A model generated the notes under the pieces. It had not been told where the DNA came from and searched no databases. It worked only from the letters and a program-made list of their open reading frames with translations. From an uncultured Planctomycetales bacterium (GTDB taxonomy: Bacteria; Omnitrophota; Gorgyraeia; Zapsychrales; Fredricksoniimonadaceae): 64,000 nucleotides of DNA. Location: NCBI GenBank assembly GCA_964483785.1, contig CAZACW010000004.1, positions 6,794 through 70,793 of the forward strand, read 5' to 3'. The first letter of the stretch is position 1, and each line of letters opens with the position of its first letter. Below, piece by piece: positions 3,425 to 13,042 of this stretch. The translations under genes and the position numbers were made by a program.

Positions 3425-4984
3425 TCAATGTTTAAAATGCCTGATGCCCGTAAAAACCATGGCGATTTTTTTCTTGTCAGCTTCCTTGATCACGGCCTCA
3501 TCCATGATGGACCCTCCGGTCTGGATGATGGCCTTGACCCCGGCCTTGGCCGCGATGGTCACGGTATCGGGTTTAGGGAGAAAGGCGTCGGAGACCAGCA
3601 CGCTGCCGCGGGCCGATGCACCTGCCCGGCGGATGGCCTCAACCGCGGCATCCACGCGGCTGGTCTGGCCGCAGCCGATGCCGAGGGTCTGCGTGCCCTT
3701 GACCAAGACGATGGCGTTGCTTTTGACATGTTTGATCAGGGCCCAGCCGAAGCCCATGGCGTCCCGCTGGGCCTTGGTAGGCTTGACCTTGCTGACCGTC
3801 TTCATCTCTTCTGTTTTCAGCGAGCGGTTGTCTTTCTCCTGCAGCAGCAGGCCGCCGGAGACTTTTTTGAAATCATAACGCTGGGCGCGCAGGTCCTTGA
3901 CATTCAAGACGAGCAGGCGCAGGTTCTTCTTGGGCATAAACAGTTCCTGGGCCCTCTTGGAAAATCCCGGGGCAATGACGCATTCCATGAACCCGCTTTT
4001 GAGCACGGCGGCCGCGGTTTTCTCGTCGACTTCGCGGTTAAAGCCGATGATCCCGCCAAAGGCCGAGAGCGGATCGGATTGATGGGCCTTGAGATAAGCC
4101 TGCTGCAGCTGCGGGGCCGAAGCCACACCGCAAGGATTATTGTGCTTGATGATCACGGCCGCCGGCGCGTCGAATTCATGGACAATGCTGACGGCCGCAT
4201 CCAGGTCCAAAATATTGTTGAAGGAAAGCTCCTTGCCCTGCAATTGCTCGAGCCTGGCCAGGCCCTCGGGCCGGGCGCTGTCCCTGTAAAAGGCCGCGGC
4301 CTGGTGCGGGTTTTCGCCGTAGCGCAGGTCCTGCGCTTTATTGAAGGAAAAGGCAAGGTCAATGGGAAAATTGGAAAAGGAATTGTCGGCCTTGAAGCGA
4401 TTGTTCAAATACCCATAAATGGCCGCGTCATAGTGCGAGGTGCGCTCAAAGACCTCAATGGCCAGGCTGGTCAAGACCTTGTCCGAAAGAAGGCCGCCGT
4501 TGTTGTCAAGCTCCTGCAGGACCTCGGCGTAACGGTTGACATCGCAGATGACGGCCACACTCTTATAGTTCTTGGCCGCGGAGCGCAGCATGGACGGCCC
4601 GCCGATGTCGATGTTCTCAATGCATTCTTCCAGGGATATGTTTTTTTTCTGGATGGCTTTCTCGAAAGGGTAAAGATTGACCACCACCATGTCGATGGTG
4701 CCGATGCCGTGGGCCGCGATCTGCTTCATGTGCTCGGGATTGTCACGCAGGGCCAGCAGGCCCCCGTGGATCTTAGGATGCAGGGTCTTGACCCGGCCGT
4801 CGAGCATTTCCGGGAAACCCGTGTAATCACAGACCTCGCGGACCTCGATGCCGCTCGAGCGCAATAGCGCGGCTGTGCCTCCGGTGGAGAGAATTTCCAC
4901 GCCGAGTCTTGAAAGTCCCTTGGCAAATTCCACCAAACCGGTCTTGTCTGAAACGGAAATTAACGCGCGTTTGACCTTGATCAT
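3425..4984 (-). CDS. purH: Bifunctional AICAR transformylase/IMP cyclohydrolase PurH.
   Basis: The product begins MIKVKRALISVSDKTG (MGS-like domain) followed by the AICARFT domain. The start is set at ATG 4984 rather than 5011 because 5000-5035 is the rpsU terminator hairpin. Confidence 0.9.
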   Translation of the reverse strand: MIKVKRALISVSDKTGLVEFAKGLSRLGVEILSTGGTAALLRSSGIEVREVCDYTGFPEMLDGRVKTLHPKIHGGLLALRDNPEHMKQIAAHGIGTIDMVVVNLYPFEKAIQKKNISLEECIENIDIGGPSMLRSAAKNYKSVAVICDVNRYAEVLQELDNNGGLLSDKVLTSLAIEVFERTSHYDAAIYGYLNNRFKADNSFSNFPIDLAFSFNKAQDLRYGENPHQAAAFYRDSARPEGLARLEQLQGKELSFNNILDLDAAVSIVHEFDAPAAVIIKHNNPCGVASAPQLQQAYLKAHQSDPLSAFGGIIGFNREVDEKTAAAVLKSGFMECVIAPGFSKRAQELFMPKKNLRLLVLNVKDLRAQRYDFKKVSGGLLLQEKDNRSLKTEEMKTVSKVKPTKAQRDAMGFGWALIKHVKSNAIVLVKGTQTLGIGCGQTSRVDAAVEAIRRAGASARGSVLVSDAFLPKPDTVTIAAKAGVKAIIQTGGSIMDEAVIKEADKKKIAMVFTGIRHFKH

Positions 4985-4998
4985 GATCAAAAAAAAGG

Positions 4999-5035
4999 GG
5001 ACGTCTCCCATTTAATTAAATGGGAGACGTCCCTA
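4999..5035 (-). terminator. Rho-independent terminator downstream of rpsU.
   Basis: A perfect inverted repeat gggacgtctccca-tttaattaaa-tgggagacgtccc is followed on the minus strand by a T-run (plus-strand aaaaaaaag at 4990-4998). Confidence 0.7.
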
Positions 5036-5039
5036 TTAT

Positions 5040-5195
5040 TTAACGTTTACCTTTTTTGCGTTTGCGTTCGGAAGGCTTGGAATAAAAGCGGCGCTCTTTG
5101 AGCTCGACAAGAAAGCCGTCTTTCTGGCATTGCTTTTTGAACAAGCGCATTGCCTTTTCAAAACTGTTCTTGTCATTGACCTTGACTTCTAACAT
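5040..5195 (-). CDS. rpsU: 30S ribosomal protein S21.
   Basis: Manual translation gives MLEVKVNDKNSFEKAMRLFKKQCQKDGFLVELKERRFYSKPSERKRKKGKR (51 aa), a canonical bS21 with its basic C-terminus. It is missing from the ORF track because it is under 60 aa. Confidence 0.85.
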   Translation of the reverse strand: MLEVKVNDKNSFEKAMRLFKKQCQKDGFLVELKERRFYSKPSERKRKKGKR

Positions 5196-5242
5196 GACGT
5201 CTCGCGTCTCCTTGAGGGTTTAAATTGGTTTTTAGGGTTTGT

Positions 5243-5270
5243 ATTATAGTATATGCCGGGTGAAAGTCAA
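5243..5270 (-). promoter_or_regulatory. Putative sigma70-type promoter for rpsU (TTGACT-N16-TATAAT).
   Basis: On the minus strand, TTGACT lies at 5270-5265 and TATAAT at 5248-5243 with a 16-nt spacer, about 50 nt upstream of the rpsU start. Confidence 0.4.
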
Positions 5271-5334
5271 CCTCAATCCGGCCCGGCCGCGGCCCGCGGG
5301 GCCCTGGGACTGACAGAGCGGCAGCGACGGTTTT

Positions 5335-6519
5335 TTAATAGGTCGGGTCAACGTAGGTGTAGAGTTCCCCCGCGAAATTACGCAAGGTGTAGCGGCCGTT
5401 TTCCTTGGACACCAGATAATCCGGGTTGACGGGGATCTTGCCGCCCCCGCCGGGCCCGTCGATCACGTAGGTCGGCACCGCGTAGCCGGTAGTGTGCCCG
5501 CGCAGGTTTTGGATGATATTGATGCCGGTCTCGACCGAAGTACGGAAATGCCTGGAGCCGACGATGGGGTCGCACTGGTAAATGTAGTAGGGCCGAACGC
5601 GGATCTTCAAGAGCTCATGGAAAAGCTTTTTCATAACCTCGGGGGAATCGTTCACCCCGCGCAAGAGCACGGTCTGGCTGCCCATGGGGATGCCGGCATC
5701 CGCAATCATGTTGCAGGCATGCTTGACGCGCGGGGTCACTTCCTTGGCGTGGTTAAAATGCACGCTCATCCACAAGGGCGTATACTTTTTGAACATCGCG
5801 ATAAGCTCCGGCGTGACCCTTTGGGGCAGGGTCACCGGAATGCGGGTGCCGATGCGGACAAATTCCACGTGCGGGATGGCCTTGACCGAGGAGATCAAAT
5901 ACTCTAGCATCCGATCCCCCAGGGTCAAAGGATCGCCGCCGGAGATCAGCACATCGCGGATTTCCTTGTGCGCGCGGATATAATTGAGCGCGGCATCATA
6001 GGTGGAGGTGTTGAGGGTATGGTTGCCGTCGCCCACCATGCGCGAGCGGGTGCAATAGCGGCAGTACATGGCGCACATCTCATTGACCAGAAAAAGCACG
6101 CGGTCCGGATAACGATGGACCAAGCCGTGCACCGCGGAGGATTTGTCTTCCCCGCAAGGGTCAAGCATTTCTTCCGGCGCGGTCTCGAATTCGTAATCCA
6201 GGGGCACGGACTGAAGGCGGATGGGACAGCCGGGGTCGTTCTCGTCGATCAAGGCGGCAAAATACGGCGGGATGGACATGGTGAGCTTGTCCCCCGCGCC
6301 TTTGACCCCGCGCTCCTCCTGCGGGGTCAAACTCATCAGCTTCGCGATCTGGTCCAGGGTGCGGATGCGGTTTCTGATCTGCCAGCGCCAATCTTCCCAG
6401 TCATTGAGCGTCGCTCCGGGAAACAGCTTGATGACGCGCTCTTCCTCAGGTGATAAGGGGATGTTGGGGCCGCCGGAGGAGGCCATTTCTTCTTTGATAA
6501 GTGCGGATGTCGGGCTCAT
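5335..6519 (-). CDS. kamA: Lysine 2,3-aminomutase (radical SAM, KamA family).
   Basis: The 394-aa product has the CAMYCRYCTRSR radical SAM cluster motif and KamA-like N- and C-terminal regions. Its start overlaps the upstream ATP-grasp stop by 4 nt. Confidence 0.8.
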   Translation of the reverse strand: MSPTSALIKEEMASSGGPNIPLSPEEERVIKLFPGATLNDWEDWRWQIRNRIRTLDQIAKLMSLTPQEERGVKGAGDKLTMSIPPYFAALIDENDPGCPIRLQSVPLDYEFETAPEEMLDPCGEDKSSAVHGLVHRYPDRVLFLVNEMCAMYCRYCTRSRMVGDGNHTLNTSTYDAALNYIRAHKEIRDVLISGGDPLTLGDRMLEYLISSVKAIPHVEFVRIGTRIPVTLPQRVTPELIAMFKKYTPLWMSVHFNHAKEVTPRVKHACNMIADAGIPMGSQTVLLRGVNDSPEVMKKLFHELLKIRVRPYYIYQCDPIVGSRHFRTSVETGINIIQNLRGHTTGYAVPTYVIDGPGGGGKIPVNPDYLVSKENGRYTLRNFAGELYTYVDPTY

Positions 6520-8345: not shown

Positions 8346-8676
8346 TTTTGACGACTGTAAAATTTTTAGGCAACGCAAAGGATGAAGGGCATGCTTTTTT
8401 GACGACTGTAAAGTTTTTAGCCAACGTAAAGGATAAAGGATATGTTTTTTGACGACTGTCATCGTTTTTGCTGCCTTTCTAGAAAATTTTTGTGGAAGGC
8501 AGCGACGCCAACGGTCTCATGATGCTTCGGCGGCTGAAAAACTCGTCCCGAAGTTCTCTGGAACTTCGGGACTCGAACATTTCAGCCGCCCCTCGGCCTT
8601 CGCCTCGGGGTTCCCTCGCATCATGAGCTGCGTTGGCTAAAAACTTTACAGTCGTCAAAAAACATATCCTTTATCC
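8346..8676. repeat. Composite intergenic element: 2.5 direct copies of a ~49-bp unit, a ~170-bp GC-rich hairpin-rich core, and one inverted copy of the unit.
   Basis: Copies of ttttttgacgactgtaaaRtttttagScaacgYaaaggat... start at 8346, 8395 and 8445. The reverse-complement copy ttggctaaaaactttacagtcgtcaaaaaacatatcctttatcc lies at 8633-8676. The core has nested hairpins such as ggcggctgaaa...tttcagccgcc and gtcccgaagttc-cagaga-acttcgggac. Confidence 0.6.
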
Positions 8677-8694: not shown

Positions 8695-9618
8695 TTACAT
8701 CTCGCCAAAAATATACCCCATCTCTTCCAGGGCGGAATGGTCCTCCCTCCAGCGGGAAGCGATTTTGACAAACAGCTCCAGAAAAACTTTTTGCCCCACC
8801 AGCGCTTCCAGGTCCTTGCGCGCCTCGGTCCCCACCTGCTTCAACACGGCCCCGGCCTTGCCGATGACGATTTCCTTTTGCGAATCGCGCTCGACTAAAA
8901 TCGTCGAACGGATATGCAGGACCTTGCCGCGTTTAGGCTTGACGCTGTCAATCAGGACCGCAATGGAATGCGGCACTTCCTGGCGCATCAATTTGAAAAG
9001 TTTTTCGCGGATCAAGTCCGCCATGGCCATGCGCCTGGGAAAATCCGTGATCACATCCTCGGGATACAAAAAAGGCCCGGAAGGCATCAGCCCAAACAAA
9101 AGGTCGAGCAATTTCGGGACATGCGTCCCTTGAAGGGCCGAGATGGGCAATAAAGTCAAGTCATCCATGTCCGTGATGGGTTTGCCGCGGACCTCTTCCC
9201 AAAGCCGGATATACTCCGGGACAAATTTGCCCTTGGTGATGTCGATTTTATTCAAGGCGATGATGATGGGCCGGCCGCACCGGTTCAGGCGGCCGATTAC
9301 ATGCTCTTCTTCGGGGCCGGTCTTTTCGCTGGCATCCACCATATGGATCACCGCGTCGACGGAATCGATGCTGCCGATCGAGGCGCGGTTCATGTACTTG
9401 TCGAGCTTGTCGCGGCCGGCGTGCAGGCCGGGCGTGTCGATGAAAACAATCTGGCCGCGCTTCTCGGTGTGGATGGCCTTGATCTGCTGGCGCGTGGTCT
9501 GCGGCACGTCGGAGACGATGGAAATTTTTTCGCCCACAATGGCATTGACCAGGGTCGATTTGCCGACATTCGGCCTGCCGACAATGGCCACCATGCCGCT
9601 TTTAAGTTTTTTTTCCAC
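8695..9618 (-). CDS. era: GTPase Era.
   Basis: The 307-aa product has the GRPNVGKSTL G1 motif, DTPG, NKxD, and a C-terminal KH domain. Confidence 0.9.
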   Translation of the reverse strand: MEKKLKSGMVAIVGRPNVGKSTLVNAIVGEKISIVSDVPQTTRQQIKAIHTEKRGQIVFIDTPGLHAGRDKLDKYMNRASIGSIDSVDAVIHMVDASEKTGPEEEHVIGRLNRCGRPIIIALNKIDITKGKFVPEYIRLWEEVRGKPITDMDDLTLLPISALQGTHVPKLLDLLFGLMPSGPFLYPEDVITDFPRRMAMADLIREKLFKLMRQEVPHSIAVLIDSVKPKRGKVLHIRSTILVERDSQKEIVIGKAGAVLKQVGTEARKDLEALVGQKVFLELFVKIASRWREDHSALEEMGYIFGEM

Positions 9619-9877
9619 GGGGCTTCCGATATTTTATGACCGTGAAAACCACGGCGGTAAACAAGGCCAGATTGACGACATTAAAACAGCGCCAGACCAG
9701 GTCCTTGGAGGTAAACCCGGACGGCGCCATCACCAGGCAGCAGACCCAGACGCCCAGGGCCCAGCTCATCGAAATATCCTCGGAGGAGCGGCGCTGGATG
9801 ATCCTGATGATCAGGGGGATGTTAAACAAGGGCATGATGATGGAAGCTGCAAGCCCCATGTCCTGGATGATGTTCAT
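9602..9877 (-). CDS. SemiSWEET / PQ-loop (MtN3) three-helix transporter protomer.
   Basis: The 91-aa product has 3 predicted TM helices. Its motif NIPLIIRIIQRRSSEDISMSW matches the SemiSWEET PQ-loop consensus (aPQiikvlktrsardiSl), with L in place of Q. Confidence 0.6.
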   Translation of the reverse strand: MNIIQDMGLAASIIMPLFNIPLIIRIIQRRSSEDISMSWALGVWVCCLVMAPSGFTSKDLVWRCFNVVNLALFTAVVFTVIKYRKPRGKKT

Positions 9878-10131
9878 ACGTTTCCTTTGCGGTATTTAAG
9901 CACCGCGGCCAAAACCGCTGTCAGCATGGCCACGTTCATCGTGTTAAAGCCCATGGCCAGGATGTCCCTCGAGACAAAGGCGCTCGGGGCCATGAAGAGT
10001 GACGCGCCCCAAAGTCCAAAGATCCAGGCCAGGGAAATGTCTTGGGAGGAACGCCGGCGGACCATCCGCACGATCAAGGGAATGTCCCATAAGGGCAGGA
10101 CAACCGCCGCCCAAAAGCCGAGGGTTTTCAC
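9874..10131 (-). CDS. SemiSWEET / PQ-loop transporter protomer, paralogous to the adjacent gene.
   Basis: The 85-aa product carries DIPLIVRMVRRRSSQDISLAW and is about 40% identical to the neighbour. It overlaps the neighbour's start by 4 nt. Confidence 0.6.
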   Translation of the reverse strand: MKTLGFWAAVVLPLWDIPLIVRMVRRRSSQDISLAWIFGLWGASLFMAPSAFVSRDILAMGFNTMNVAMLTAVLAAVLKYRKGNV

Positions 10132-10148
10132 GATAGCCTCCTTGGGGT

Positions 10149-11051
10149 CTACACAGCGAAAAATTTGACCAGGGTCTTGAGGCGGCCCTCCACCTCGCGC
10201 ATGGTCAGCGACGCGGTCTGGGCCATGCCGAAGCCCTGCACATTGAAAGAGGCCACGGTGGTGGCATACAGCAGGGCCTTGCGCAGGGTCTTCTCATCCA
10301 GGCGGTTGGTCTTGCTTAAATACCCCATGAGCCCGCCGGCAAAGGTGTCCCCGGCGCCGGTGGGGTCCACGACCTTCTGCACCGGATAGGCGGGAAAAGC
10401 GAACATCACCTGGCTGCTGTAAAACAGGACCCCGTGCTCGCCTTTTTTGATGACGATCATCCGCGGCCCCATGGACCTTAGGGCACGGGCCGCCATGATC
10501 AGGTTTTGTTCCCCGGTCAGGGCCCTGGCTTCCCCGTCGTTGGCCACGAACAAATGCACCATCTTCATCAGGCGCCGCAGGGACTTTTGCTTATGGGTGA
10601 TCCATAAATTCATGCTGTCCAAGCCGATCAGCCGCGGGGAGCGCAGGTGCTTTAACAGCATCACCTGCAGATCGGGATCGAAATTGGCCAGGAAAATATT
10701 GGGCAGATGCCGTTGATGGGACATCAGTTCAGGGACATAGGTCTCCAGGACCCCCAGTTCCGTGGCCAGGGTCAGGGCCGAATTCAAGTCCCCCTGTTTG
10801 TACTCGCCGCGCCAGCGAAAGGTCTTGCCGTTGCTGATCTTCAACGAGGAAAGGTCGATCCCCTTGCGTTTCAAAAAGCCCAAATGCTTGGAGGGAAAGT
10901 CCCTGCCCACCACGGCCACCAGATGCACGTCGGTAAACAGCCGCGCGGACATGGCAAAATGCGCGGCCGAGCCGCCCAGCATGTCCTTTTTAACGCCCGA
11001 GGGCGTCTTCACATGGTCCAAAGCCACCGTGCCTAAAACCACCAGGCTCAT
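10149..11051 (-). CDS. PfkB-family carbohydrate kinase (ribokinase/fructokinase-like).
   Basis: The 300-aa product has the N-terminal GG dipeptide and the C-terminal DPTGAGDTFAGG PfkB signature. Confidence 0.8.
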   Translation of the reverse strand: MSLVVLGTVALDHVKTPSGVKKDMLGGSAAHFAMSARLFTDVHLVAVVGRDFPSKHLGFLKRKGIDLSSLKISNGKTFRWRGEYKQGDLNSALTLATELGVLETYVPELMSHQRHLPNIFLANFDPDLQVMLLKHLRSPRLIGLDSMNLWITHKQKSLRRLMKMVHLFVANDGEARALTGEQNLIMAARALRSMGPRMIVIKKGEHGVLFYSSQVMFAFPAYPVQKVVDPTGAGDTFAGGLMGYLSKTNRLDEKTLRKALLYATTVASFNVQGFGMAQTASLTMREVEGRLKTLVKFFAV

Positions 11052-11052
11052 A

Positions 11053-11472
11053 TCATGCTCCTATGATTTTGATCAATACGCGTTTGTCCCTGCGTCCGTC
11101 GAATTCCCCGTAAAAAATCTGTTCCCAGGGCCCGAAATCCAGGCGCCCCTGCGTGATGGCGACCGTGACTTCGCGGCCCATCACCTGGCGCTTCAGGTGC
11201 GCGTCCGCGTTGTCCTCGCCGGTGGCATTGTGCCGGTACTGCCCGACGGGCGCGTGCGGCGCCAGTTTCTCCAGCCAGGCATCGTAATCCTCTAAGAGCC
11301 CGCTCTCGTCGTCATTGATATAGACGCTGGCGGAAATGTGCATGGCATTGACCAGGCACAATCCCTCCTTAATGCCGCTTTCATCCACCGCCTTTTGCAC
11401 CTGGTCCGTGATATTGATGTACGCCCGGCGGGTCTTGGTATGAAACATCAACTCTCGGCGGAAAGCTTTCAC
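11053..11472 (-). CDS. yjbQ: YjbQ/UPF0047 family protein (secondary thiamine-phosphate synthase-like).
   Basis: The 139-aa product is YjbQ-like along its full length (e.g. ...[15 protein letters not shown]...HLKRQVMG...). Confidence 0.75.
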
Positions 11473-11867
11473 TTTTTTTTCTTTTCCAGCTGCCTGAGGT
11501 ACTGCTGAAACTGCGTGTCTTTCAAAAGATTGTCCAGGTCCGCATCGCCCTTCAAATACTCAAAATCATCATACCCGTAGTCGATGGCGCGGGTCAGGGC
11601 GCCCAGGGCCGCGCGGGTCTGGTTTAAAAGCGCGTAGGAGCAGGCCAGATTGTAATGCACGATGGCATCCTCGGGCCTGAGTTTGGCCAATTTCAAATCC
11701 ACTTCCAGGCCCTTCTGCCACAGCCCGGCCCTGGTGTACAGATCGCCGATGGCGCTTAAGGCCTCGATGAACTGCGGGGCGTTTTTCAGGATATTCTCGT
11801 AAAAAACGATCTCAAAATCAATGTCTTCCTTCTTGCGGGACAATTTAGGCGCGTGGTCCTTGCGCAT
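11469..11867 (-). CDS. Tetratricopeptide-repeat protein.
   Basis: The 132-aa product has TPR-like Ala/Tyr/Leu periodicity ([24 protein letters not shown]...). Confidence 0.6.
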
Positions 11868-11890: not shown

Positions 11891-13042
11891 CTATTTCTTC
11901 TTTAAATAGCTGCCGATGCGCGCGACGGCCTCGACGAGATTGTCGTAGCTCGAGGCATAGGAAATCCGCACGTAATCGGCGCAGCCGGCTCCGAAGGCAT
12001 TGCCCGGCACCAGGGCCACTTTTTGCTTGAGCAGTAAATTCTTGGCAAAATCCATGGAGCTCTCGCCCGTGGACTTCACCGAGGGAAACGCGTAAAAAGC
12101 GCCCTGCGGCATATGGCAGGCAAGCCCTAGTTCGTTTAAGGCGCCGACGATGAAGCGCCGGCGGCGGTCATACTCTTTTTTCATGGCCTGCACGTCGGAG
12201 GCGGCATTTTTCAAGGCCTCGATGGCGGCCATCTGGCCCGTGATCGGCGCGCAAAGCAGGGTGTACTGGTGGATCTTGGTCATGGCGCCCACGATGTCCG
12301 CGGGGCCGCAGGCATAGCCGACCCGGAATCCCGTCATGGCGTAGCTTTTCGAAAGTCCATTGAGATAGATGACGCGGTTGCGCATCTGCGGCACGTTAAA
12401 AAACGGCGTGTGCTCGAAATCATAGCTTAACTCGTCATAAAGCTCGTCGCTGATGACCAAAAGGTCATGCTTTTTGATGACGCGGCCCAATTCCTCCAGT
12501 TCTTGCCGGGTGTAGGAGGTGCCGGTGGGGTTGCAGGGATAGCCCAAGAGAAGGCCGCGCACGCCGCGGCTGATCGAGGCTTCGATCTGCTTGGGCGTCA
12601 CCTTAAAGCCCGTCTCGATCTTAGTCTCCAAAAAAACCGGCTCGCCGCCGGCCAAGGCCACCACCGGGCCGTAGGCCACATAATAAGGCTCAGGCACGAG
12701 GATCTTCTCGCCGGGATTGAGGATGGCCCGCATGGCCAAATCCAGGCCTTCGCTGACGCCGGCCGTGATCAGGACCTCTTCTTGCGGGTCATAAACGGCC
12801 TGATAGCGTTTTTTAAGGAAGGCGGTGATTTCCCGCCGCAATTCGATCATGCCCTTGTTGGAGGTGTAGGAGGTGTAGCCCTGCTCGAGGGACTCGATGG
12901 CCTTGGCGCGCACGTGCCAGGGGGTCACGAAGTCCGGCTCCCCCACGCCGAGGGAGATCACGTCCTTCATGCCCAGCACTAAATCAAAAAAGGCCCGGAT
13001 GCCTGAAGGGGCCAGTTCATCAACACGTCTGGAAATTCTCAT
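11891..13042 (-). CDS. PLP-dependent aminotransferase, class I/II (aspartate/aromatic aminotransferase-like).
   Basis: The 383-aa product has the SKSYAMTGFRVGYA PLP-lysine motif and the fold-type I layout. Confidence 0.8.
   Translation of the reverse strand: MRISRRVDELAPSGIRAFFDLVLGMKDVISLGVGEPDFVTPWHVRAKAIESLEQGYTSYTSNKGMIELRREITAFLKKRYQAVYDPQEEVLITAGVSEGLDLAMRAILNPGEKILVPEPYYVAYGPVVALAGGEPVFLETKIETGFKVTPKQIEASISRGVRGLLLGYPCNPTGTSYTRQELEELGRVIKKHDLLVISDELYDELSYDFEHTPFFNVPQMRNRVIYLNGLSKSYAMTGFRVGYACGPADIVGAMTKIHQYTLLCAPITGQMAAIEALKNAASDVQAMKKEYDRRRRFIVGALNELGLACHMPQGAFYAFPSVKSTGESSMDFAKNLLLKQKVALVPGNAFGAGCADYVRISYASSYDNLVEAVARIGSYLKKK

Follow-up and report, generated by a model that had tools for sequence, protein, structure and literature searches.

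A 64-kb stretch of contig CAZACW010000004.1 (hereafter the window; all coordinates are window positions), assigned to the phylum Omnitrophota, carries two small overlapping genes, A and B, next to a gene for a PfkB-family carbohydrate kinase. The original prediction took A and B for two SemiSWEET transporters that form an obligate heterodimer mimicking a eukaryotic SWEET, with the imported sugar immediately phosphorylated by the kinase. Does A need B, does B need A, and does either need the kinase? The explanation that we favor, to which we give an even chance of being correct, is that A is an accessory, dispensable copy beside a self-sufficient B, that the two would form a facultative A:B dimer, and that conserved gene order accounts for the neighboring kinase as well as functional coupling does, with a substrate that need not be a sugar. 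Both open reading frames (ORFs) are real and lie on the minus strand: gene A (10131..9874) starts with GTG and encodes 85 amino acids, and gene B (9877..9602) starts with ATG and encodes 91. Public gene calls on the identical contig agree with both.

The two proteins are 48% identical over 82 amino acids without a gap (E = 2e-31) and have the motif PLI(I/V)R..RRSS.DIS..W in common. This had been described as a PQ-loop/SemiSWEET motif; it is indeed present in both proteins, with PL instead of PQ. Existing family models detect the pair poorly. With the Pfam MtN3_slv model (PF03083), B reaches 23.3 bits, just short of the 23.7 cut-off, and A gives no match, a marginal outcome for the check that had been named as decisive; a PF03083 match is precomputed for some orthologues. 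Both proteins also score below the cut-off of 80 bits of the NCBIfam model SemiSWEET_2 (NF037968), with 21.5 bits for B and 14.9 for A. We built a profile from 38 members of the family and searched it against the PDB and a representative library of 1.8 billion proteins. All six PDB matches were SemiSWEETs, aligned over their full length, the best being 9kax (E = 1e-4, residues 3-83 to 5-85), with 4rng (6e-4) and 4qnc (0.013) among the others. In the library, the family was compact, with 40 clusters below 1e-10, and its nearest relatives outside, in the weak tail of the search, were canonical MtN3_slv/PQ-loop proteins.

Structure prediction gave the same picture. The AlphaFold2 models (mean confidence score pLDDT of 91.8 for B and 87.8 for A) each contain a kinked first transmembrane helix (TM1) plus two further helices, in agreement with the three transmembrane segments noted originally. 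In Foldseek searches, the B model matched 4rng with TM-scores of 0.77/0.84, and the best matches of the A model were SemiSWEETs at 0.79-0.83. Against 4rng, 4qnc, and 4x5m, the two models gave TM-scores of 0.77-0.84 and root-mean-square deviations of 1.6-2.4 Å; the top matches were all SemiSWEET or SWEET proteins, and the mitochondrial pyruvate carrier (MPC) and the KDEL receptor scored far lower. The predicted topology is the same in both proteins: the N-terminus is outside, and loop 1, which is positively charged, is inside together with the C-terminus. Since the PDB matches of the profile are exclusively SemiSWEETs and the predicted structures concur, with the hidden Markov model test being marginal, we assign A and B to the SemiSWEET fold as paralogues in a highly divergent subfamily that falls below the family cut-offs.

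Alignment with LbSemiSWEET is gap-free (family numbering is Lb + 2) and locates both the likeness and the divergence. Like the solved bacterial SemiSWEETs (4qnc LbSemiSWEET, 4rng TySemiSWEET, 4x5m EcSemiSWEET, and 9kax BjSemiSWEET), A and B have about 85-91 amino acids and three transmembrane helices with a kinked TM1, and they share the hinge proline, the loop motif, the pocket asparagine on TM3, and a basic C-terminus. In the PQ motif, the proline is kept (P21) and the glutamine is replaced by an invariant leucine (L22) in A and B alike. Of the two residues of this motif, the glutamine is reported to tolerate mutation to alanine with only a slight effect, while the same mutation of the proline is severe (PMC5972207). 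The pocket asparagine (N66, Lb N64), the cytoplasmic-loop motif (R/K)xSxxD(I/V)S, and the basic C-terminus are likewise retained. In contrast with the solved proteins, the pocket tryptophan (Lb W48) is an invariant methionine (M50) in both A and B, the inner-gate aromatic residue (Lb F17, family position 19) is asparagine in B and aspartate in A, and the family has invariants of its own (W39, W44, C46, W62, R63, and N69). Sequences of the family are about 60% identical across the whole phylum, which is unusually well conserved. Because the sugar-stacking tryptophan is an invariant methionine throughout the family, it is uncertain whether a sugar is the substrate, and the substrate need not be one.

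To follow the two genes across genomes, we scanned one genome per species with B-specific peptide patterns and fetched 80 loci (78 distinct) of about 12 kb each; with two earlier loci, each a duplicate of one of these, the set comes to 82 loci, 80 of them distinct. Relatives of B occur in at least 339 species-level genomes, nearly all from Omnitrophota, and its homologues form 185 clusters that are abundant in metagenome-assembled genomes of Candidatus Omnitrophota. When the window proteins were mapped onto the 80 loci, the B-type gene was single-copy in 67. The A+B tandem was found in 12, in addition to the window, and in one more locus, L037, an A-like second copy stands past era, the gene for the GTPase Era. 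Thus, unlike the solved SemiSWEETs, the family is nearly confined to Omnitrophota, and its tandem diverged pair to one clade within that phylum.

Phylogenies of the genes and of the genomes indicate how this distribution came about. The A sequences are monophyletic and sit on a long branch. In a bootstrapped genome tree built from seven concatenated flanking markers, all A-bearing genomes fall into one clade with 100% support (90% when L037 is included), and the nested clade that holds the window is also supported at 100%. Within a subclade supported at 96%, A-bearing genomes (L006, L007, and L014) are mixed with A-less ones (L041, L059, and L036), and the A-less genomes formed a monophyletic group in 0% of the bootstrap replicates. 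As reconstructed from these trees, A originated by a single tandem duplication at the base of one clade and was subsequently lost at least twice, probably three to five times, with B retained each time. Since B is single-copy in most genomes and is kept where A was lost, it follows that B works without A. The claim of an obligate heterodimer is not supported, in view of the same two observations, namely, the prevalence of solitary B and a single origin of A followed by repeated loss.

Wherever A is present, it almost always accompanies B. In the 12 genome loci, A lies directly upstream of B at spacings of -10 to +23 nt, six of them at -4. A profile of A alone recovered 39 metagenome loci, 37 of which show PfkB, then A, then B, tightly spaced, and three further contigs have the same order and tight spacing. 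Across the 12 genome loci and these 37, the spacing between A and B is mostly -4 to +12 nt, and essentially no A-type gene was found away from B among about 50 loci. In the window, the two genes overlap by 4 nt, as had been noted originally, in an ATGA sequence (9874-9877, minus strand) that joins the stop codon of A to the start codon of B; this overlap suggests translational coupling of A and B.

The sister lineage of the duplication clade, L037, has a separate arrangement. Its second SemiSWEET-like gene (L037:7900-8178, genome JAGNTT010000015.1) lies 1.6 kb from B, downstream of era, and has D19, L43, A54, V70, L73, and L77 as in A, together with C46, W62, and K63 as in B. This copy is probably an early-branching, non-tandem orthologue of A.

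Divergence between the two copies is one-sided. Among 13 pairs, A had a ratio of nonsynonymous to synonymous substitution rates (dN/dS) of about 0.11-0.14, compared with 0.06-0.10 in B, with dS saturated for most pairs; of 78 comparisons, 75 gave a higher dN for A than for B, and the ratio averaged 1.4. A is thus under purifying selection and evolves faster than B. Column by column, B from A-bearing genomes keeps every family invariant, while A differs at ten positions, namely, 10 (V/I in B, W in A), 19 (N to D), 46 (C to S/A/T), 54 (G to A), 62 (W to A), 63 (a conserved basic R/K to I/M/V), 70 (L to V), 72 (L to M), 73 (F to L), and 77 (V to L). Three of these (19, 54, and 62) correspond in the alignment to F17, G52, and I60 of LbSemiSWEET, which are gate or conserved TM2 positions (PMC5972207), and the basic residue 63 may form, with D59, a counterpart of the R57/D59 outer gate of EcSemiSWEET. 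The family core is retained in A (P16, P21, R29, S31, S32, D34, S36, W39, G42, W44, M50, P52, N66, N69, and Y83). Judged from these columns, divergence is asymmetric, with B conservative and A remodeled along the translocation path.

What, then, would A do beside a B that works alone? In the mechanism that we propose, B alone would be sufficient, presumably as a parallel homodimer such as those of the solved SemiSWEETs. A would have arisen by one tandem duplication, with about ten B-invariant residues replaced, several of them at gate- or pocket-aligned positions, and its translation would be coupled to that of B. It would then join B in an asymmetric A:B dimer, beside or instead of B:B, and this dimer would modify gating or specificity. 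Co-assembly with B is the most likely role of A, with the chances for and against it about equal. An A:B heterodimer is therefore plausible as a facultative rather than an obligate form, and A is dispensable over evolutionary time.

One residue of B hints at mutual adjustment. Position 15, aligned with Thr13 in the pocket of LbSemiSWEET, is methionine in 46 of 49 A-bearing loci. Among the A-less genomes of that clade, only 3 of 12 have methionine there, and most genomes outside the duplication clade have leucine. The trend is suggestive of interplay between A and B. A second candidate, residue 17 of B, had appeared as F in A-less and L in A-bearing genomes; the pattern was gone once 37 metagenomic pairs were added, with F17 present in 8 of 36 A-bearing loci.

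Several points weigh against co-assembly as the role of A. The comparison at position 15 consists of raw counts in which phylogenetic kinship is ignored, and the loss of the apparent covariation at position 17 with more data removes what had seemed a second instance. Genomes were judged A-less on loci of about 12 kb and with B-specific patterns, so that a relocated A elsewhere in the genome is possible. The most striking A-specific residue, D19, is shared by L122, a B-like gene that is solitary, and the A-like copy of L037 stands 1.6 kb from B, past era, from which it follows that tandem coupling is not required.

The best-surviving alternative is that A and B form separate homodimers, A2 and B2, which differ in substrate or gating and are merely co-expressed, that is, neofunctionalization without a heteromer. 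We consider it possible but rather doubtful. Every solved SemiSWEET is homodimeric (PMC5972207). That A keeps the family core residues and is under purifying selection would fit a protein that functions by itself, as would the non-adjacent copy in L037. We had considered that two facing Asp19 residues might disfavor an A2 homodimer, and this argument is weakened by the solitary L122 gene; D19 alone therefore does not forbid homodimers. Against separate homodimers stand the near absence of A without a neighboring B in about 50 independent loci and the matched synthesis of A and B that ATGA coupling implies. Moreover, A has lost W62 and R/K63 and has G54 changed, so that A2 would be without an outer gate if these residues form one, as is suggested by where they align in the gate region of EcSemiSWEET and LbSemiSWEET. 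Should A and B nevertheless prove to be separate homodimers, the pair would represent an ordinary lineage-specific duplication.

The L122 gene (L122:2245-2508) is an observation in its own right. It is solitary and B-like, with an A-type PLWDIPLI segment (containing D19) and B-type VWR and MAPxGF segments, and its neighbors are a pterin-binding-like ORF and a DRTGG-like ORF.

Known systems offer precedents for co-assembly of A and B as well as differences from it. SemiSWEETs are found in operons with carbohydrate genes, and all solved ones are dimers (PMC5972207). MPC1/MPC2 is a heterodimer of two diverged SemiSWEET-like protomers that works as an asymmetric carrier (PMC12280002, PMC12007569). 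It therefore provides a precedent for a heterodimer of this fold, and MPC chains are among the weaker fold matches of A and B, at TM-scores of about 0.45-0.6, much weaker than SemiSWEETs. The eukaryotic MPC genes are, however, unlinked, and their products are reported to act as the heterodimer in most mammalian cells, whereas here B mostly stands alone and A is dispensable. In an MPC-type system both paralogues would always occur together, and in our set 67 of the 80 loci have B but no A. Another parallel comes from Legionella brunensis, in which neighboring 3-TM PQ-loop genes match the N- and C-terminal halves of bacterial 7-TM SWEET-like proteins and have been discussed as a duplication step ahead of fusion (PMC5972207). 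Like A and B, these are separate 3-TM genes of the MtN3 clan located close together; they belong to another subfamily and another phylum, and it is for the Omnitrophota pair that origin, losses, and asymmetric divergence have been traced.

Paired small multidrug resistance transporters (EbrAB) and Fluc/CrcB pairs are encoded by adjacent, often overlapping genes whose products are co-translated, heterodimer-forming paralogues of about 100 amino acids, one of them more diverged than the other. Those pairs are antiparallel, with opposite topologies, whereas a single topology is predicted for A and B, so that a dimer of the two would be parallel. It is possible, though on the doubtful side, that A and B form the working transporter of the clade as a SemiSWEET that is naturally heterodimeric, parallel, and unfused and whose gate and pocket are asymmetric; this would be an intermediate between homodimeric SemiSWEETs and SWEET-type proteins with internal asymmetry.

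In the literature, we found no report of an Omnitrophota SemiSWEET subfamily or of a traced tandem SemiSWEET pair. The B family constitutes an unannotated, phylum-wide, divergent SemiSWEET subfamily (Trp to Met, PQ to PL) and could be relevant to how Omnitrophota, a largely uncultured phylum, take up nutrients. The SWEET fold has its smallest units in the SemiSWEETs, which serve as models for alternating access and for asymmetry gained by duplication. A conserved protomer paired with a diverged one would be a ready system for the effects of asymmetry on gating and specificity, and material for comparison already exists in some 50 pairs with known sequence, in sister lineages with a solitary gene, and in several losses that occurred independently. 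If the A:B heterodimer is real, it would be an intermediate from SemiSWEET to SWEET with a traceable birth, co-adaptation (for example, at position 15), and repeated loss.

The second alternative is the original one, in which an obligate A:B heterodimer mimics a eukaryotic SWEET and the PfkB kinase immediately phosphorylates, and so traps, the imported sugar. Taken as a whole, this is unlikely, although several observations speak for it. A and B are in tandem, apparently coupled in translation, and of the same predicted topology; the kinase gene lies 17 nt upstream with no terminator between; and the SWEET-like PnuC transporters are an established case of a uniporter whose substrate is trapped by a kinase. 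In 51 of the 80 loci, PfkB is found no more than 200 nt upstream of the small gene or genes, with PfkB identities of 57-87%, and the PfkB-B-Era core stays together even where YjbQ has moved or been inverted (L029, L061, and L066).

The same survey provides most of the evidence against obligate pairing with trapping. Besides the solitary B of most genomes and the repeated loss of A, Era is directly downstream of B in about 51 of the 80 loci (43 scored, plus 8 in which the B ORF runs on into era), which makes B-Era adjacency as conserved as PfkB-B adjacency; adjacency therefore cannot tell functional coupling from inherited gene order. A whole block, AsnC-aminotransferase-TPR-YjbQ-PfkB-B-Era-EndoIII-Ddl, is syntenic across loci, with the position of YjbQ relative to PfkB being variable. 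In 6 more loci an unrelated gene stands between PfkB and B, and 18 loci have B in other surroundings, unrelated among themselves, where the nearest 6 kb contain no kinase. The 23 loci with B outside the PfkB-Era block showed no shared functional theme, the neighbors of B being QueC/QueE, AroC, signal peptidase, BipA, response regulators, and a DRTGG-like protein. The kinase family itself, with more than 7,900 homologues, has a vastly wider range than the B family, and the replacement of the sugar-stacking Trp by Met also argues against sugar trapping. Taken together, the comparison of loci indicates that block synteny explains the PfkB-B adjacency as well as coupling does, and functional coupling of kinase and transporter, considered separately from the obligate dimer, is in our estimation doubtful.

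The kinase is a clear PfkB-family member (PF00294, 104.9 bits against a cut-off of 25.8), and its DPTGAGDTF motif, with the catalytic GAGD, aligns with PDB entry 3kd6 and with ribokinase. No substrate-specific NCBIfam equivalog reached its own cut-off, the best being ribokinase with 82 bits against 300, and among the 120 matches listed in the kinase search there were only close Omnitrophota relatives. The structure 3kd6 ("Carbohydrate kinase, PfkB family") is about 50% identical to the kinase over its full length (E = 6e-77). In the alignment, the N-terminal Asp (GTVALDH) and DPTGAGDTF are conserved in both proteins, and K43 and N46 of ribokinase are not. The entry is described as a Chlorobium nucleoside kinase with AMP bound, which does not establish the substrate of the kinase studied here; a literature search on 3KD6 found nothing.

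It is very unlikely that the SemiSWEET fold has instead been recruited to a housekeeping membrane role, for example, an envelope or lipid-linked one as in other members of the MtN3 clan, with the duplication tuning that role. Scores under the family cut-offs, the changes from PQ to PL and from pocket Trp to Met, the identity of about 60% across a phylum, the position of the gene in a housekeeping operon with era, and the lack of a carbohydrate theme in contexts elsewhere would all be compatible with such a role. However, in both sequence and structure the family is closest to genuine SemiSWEET transporters rather than to LAB_N, KDELR, or MPC, and it retains the pocket Asn N66, the hinge proline P21, and the D-x-S motif of the loop. 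Finally, that A is a decaying, functionless duplicate, as its faster evolution and several losses might suggest, is effectively refuted by about 50 intact orthologues, 29 invariant columns among 17 aligned A-type sequences, a dN/dS of about 0.1, and the conservation of its start context and of its coupling to B.

In the window, all genes between 8.7 and 13 kb lie on the minus strand. In the direction of transcription, the string begins with an aminotransferase gene (13042..11891), followed by a gene for a small TPR protein (11867..11469), the YjbQ/UPF0047 gene (11472..11053; Pfam, 133 bits; NCBIfam TIGR00149), and the ribokinase-like PfkB gene (11051..10149). A Shine-Dalgarno sequence, AAGGAGG (10143..10137), precedes the GTG start of gene A by 5 nt, and era (9618..8695; NCBIfam PRK00089, 348 bits) is directly downstream of gene B. 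Spacings are 17 nt between kinase and A, -4 nt between A and B, and -17 nt between B and era. The only strong terminator-like hairpin, with a 12-bp stem, 7 GC pairs, and a T run (8572..8545, minus strand), lies just past era, and none comparable was seen between the kinase and era; it probably marks the end of a YjbQ-PfkB-A-B-Era transcription unit. No tRNA or tmRNA genes and no Rfam matches at the gathering threshold were found across the whole window. A and B are thus probably co-transcribed with the kinase in one compact unit, in line with the single operon originally predicted. The kinase had been placed directly after the pair; it is indeed adjacent and on the same strand, but it lies upstream, and it is era that comes directly after the pair. 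Overall, the original observation is partly confirmed, and its interpretation is partly supported.

Some relatives of the locus differ in details of gene structure. The B ORF of several of them lacks the usual stop and runs 90-290 nt into era in another frame, giving ORFs of 103-183 amino acids (L005:6001-6552, L070:6007-6522, and L060:4066-4464, and also L007, L012, L013, L036, and L049); this could be a true C-terminal extension or overlap, or else an artefact of assembly or annotation. None of the longer matches was a 6- or 7-TM fusion within the Omnitrophota family. Longer members considered as telling fusions proved uninformative, one being a fusion to an RNA-recognition motif (RRM) and the others C-terminal extensions. 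The RRM fusion, a 295-amino-acid protein of the representative library (P0170), combines the three-TM domain of the B family with a C-terminal RRM and an arginine/glycine-rich tail; the fusion could have been introduced in gene calling, or the protein could be a true chimera.

Other differences concern the neighbors of B. A DHH-family (NrnA-like) phosphoesterase of 328 amino acids is encoded between PfkB and B in one lineage, in L023 (4998-5984) and also in L021, L032, L063, and L082, and a nitroreductase-like gene occupies this place in L038; neither inserted gene is related to transport. In another context, that of one lineage with L034, L043, and L069 (at about 4100-6000), a solitary B directly follows ORFs that resemble the queuosine-precursor genes QueC and QueE by motif, with a possible QueD ahead of them.

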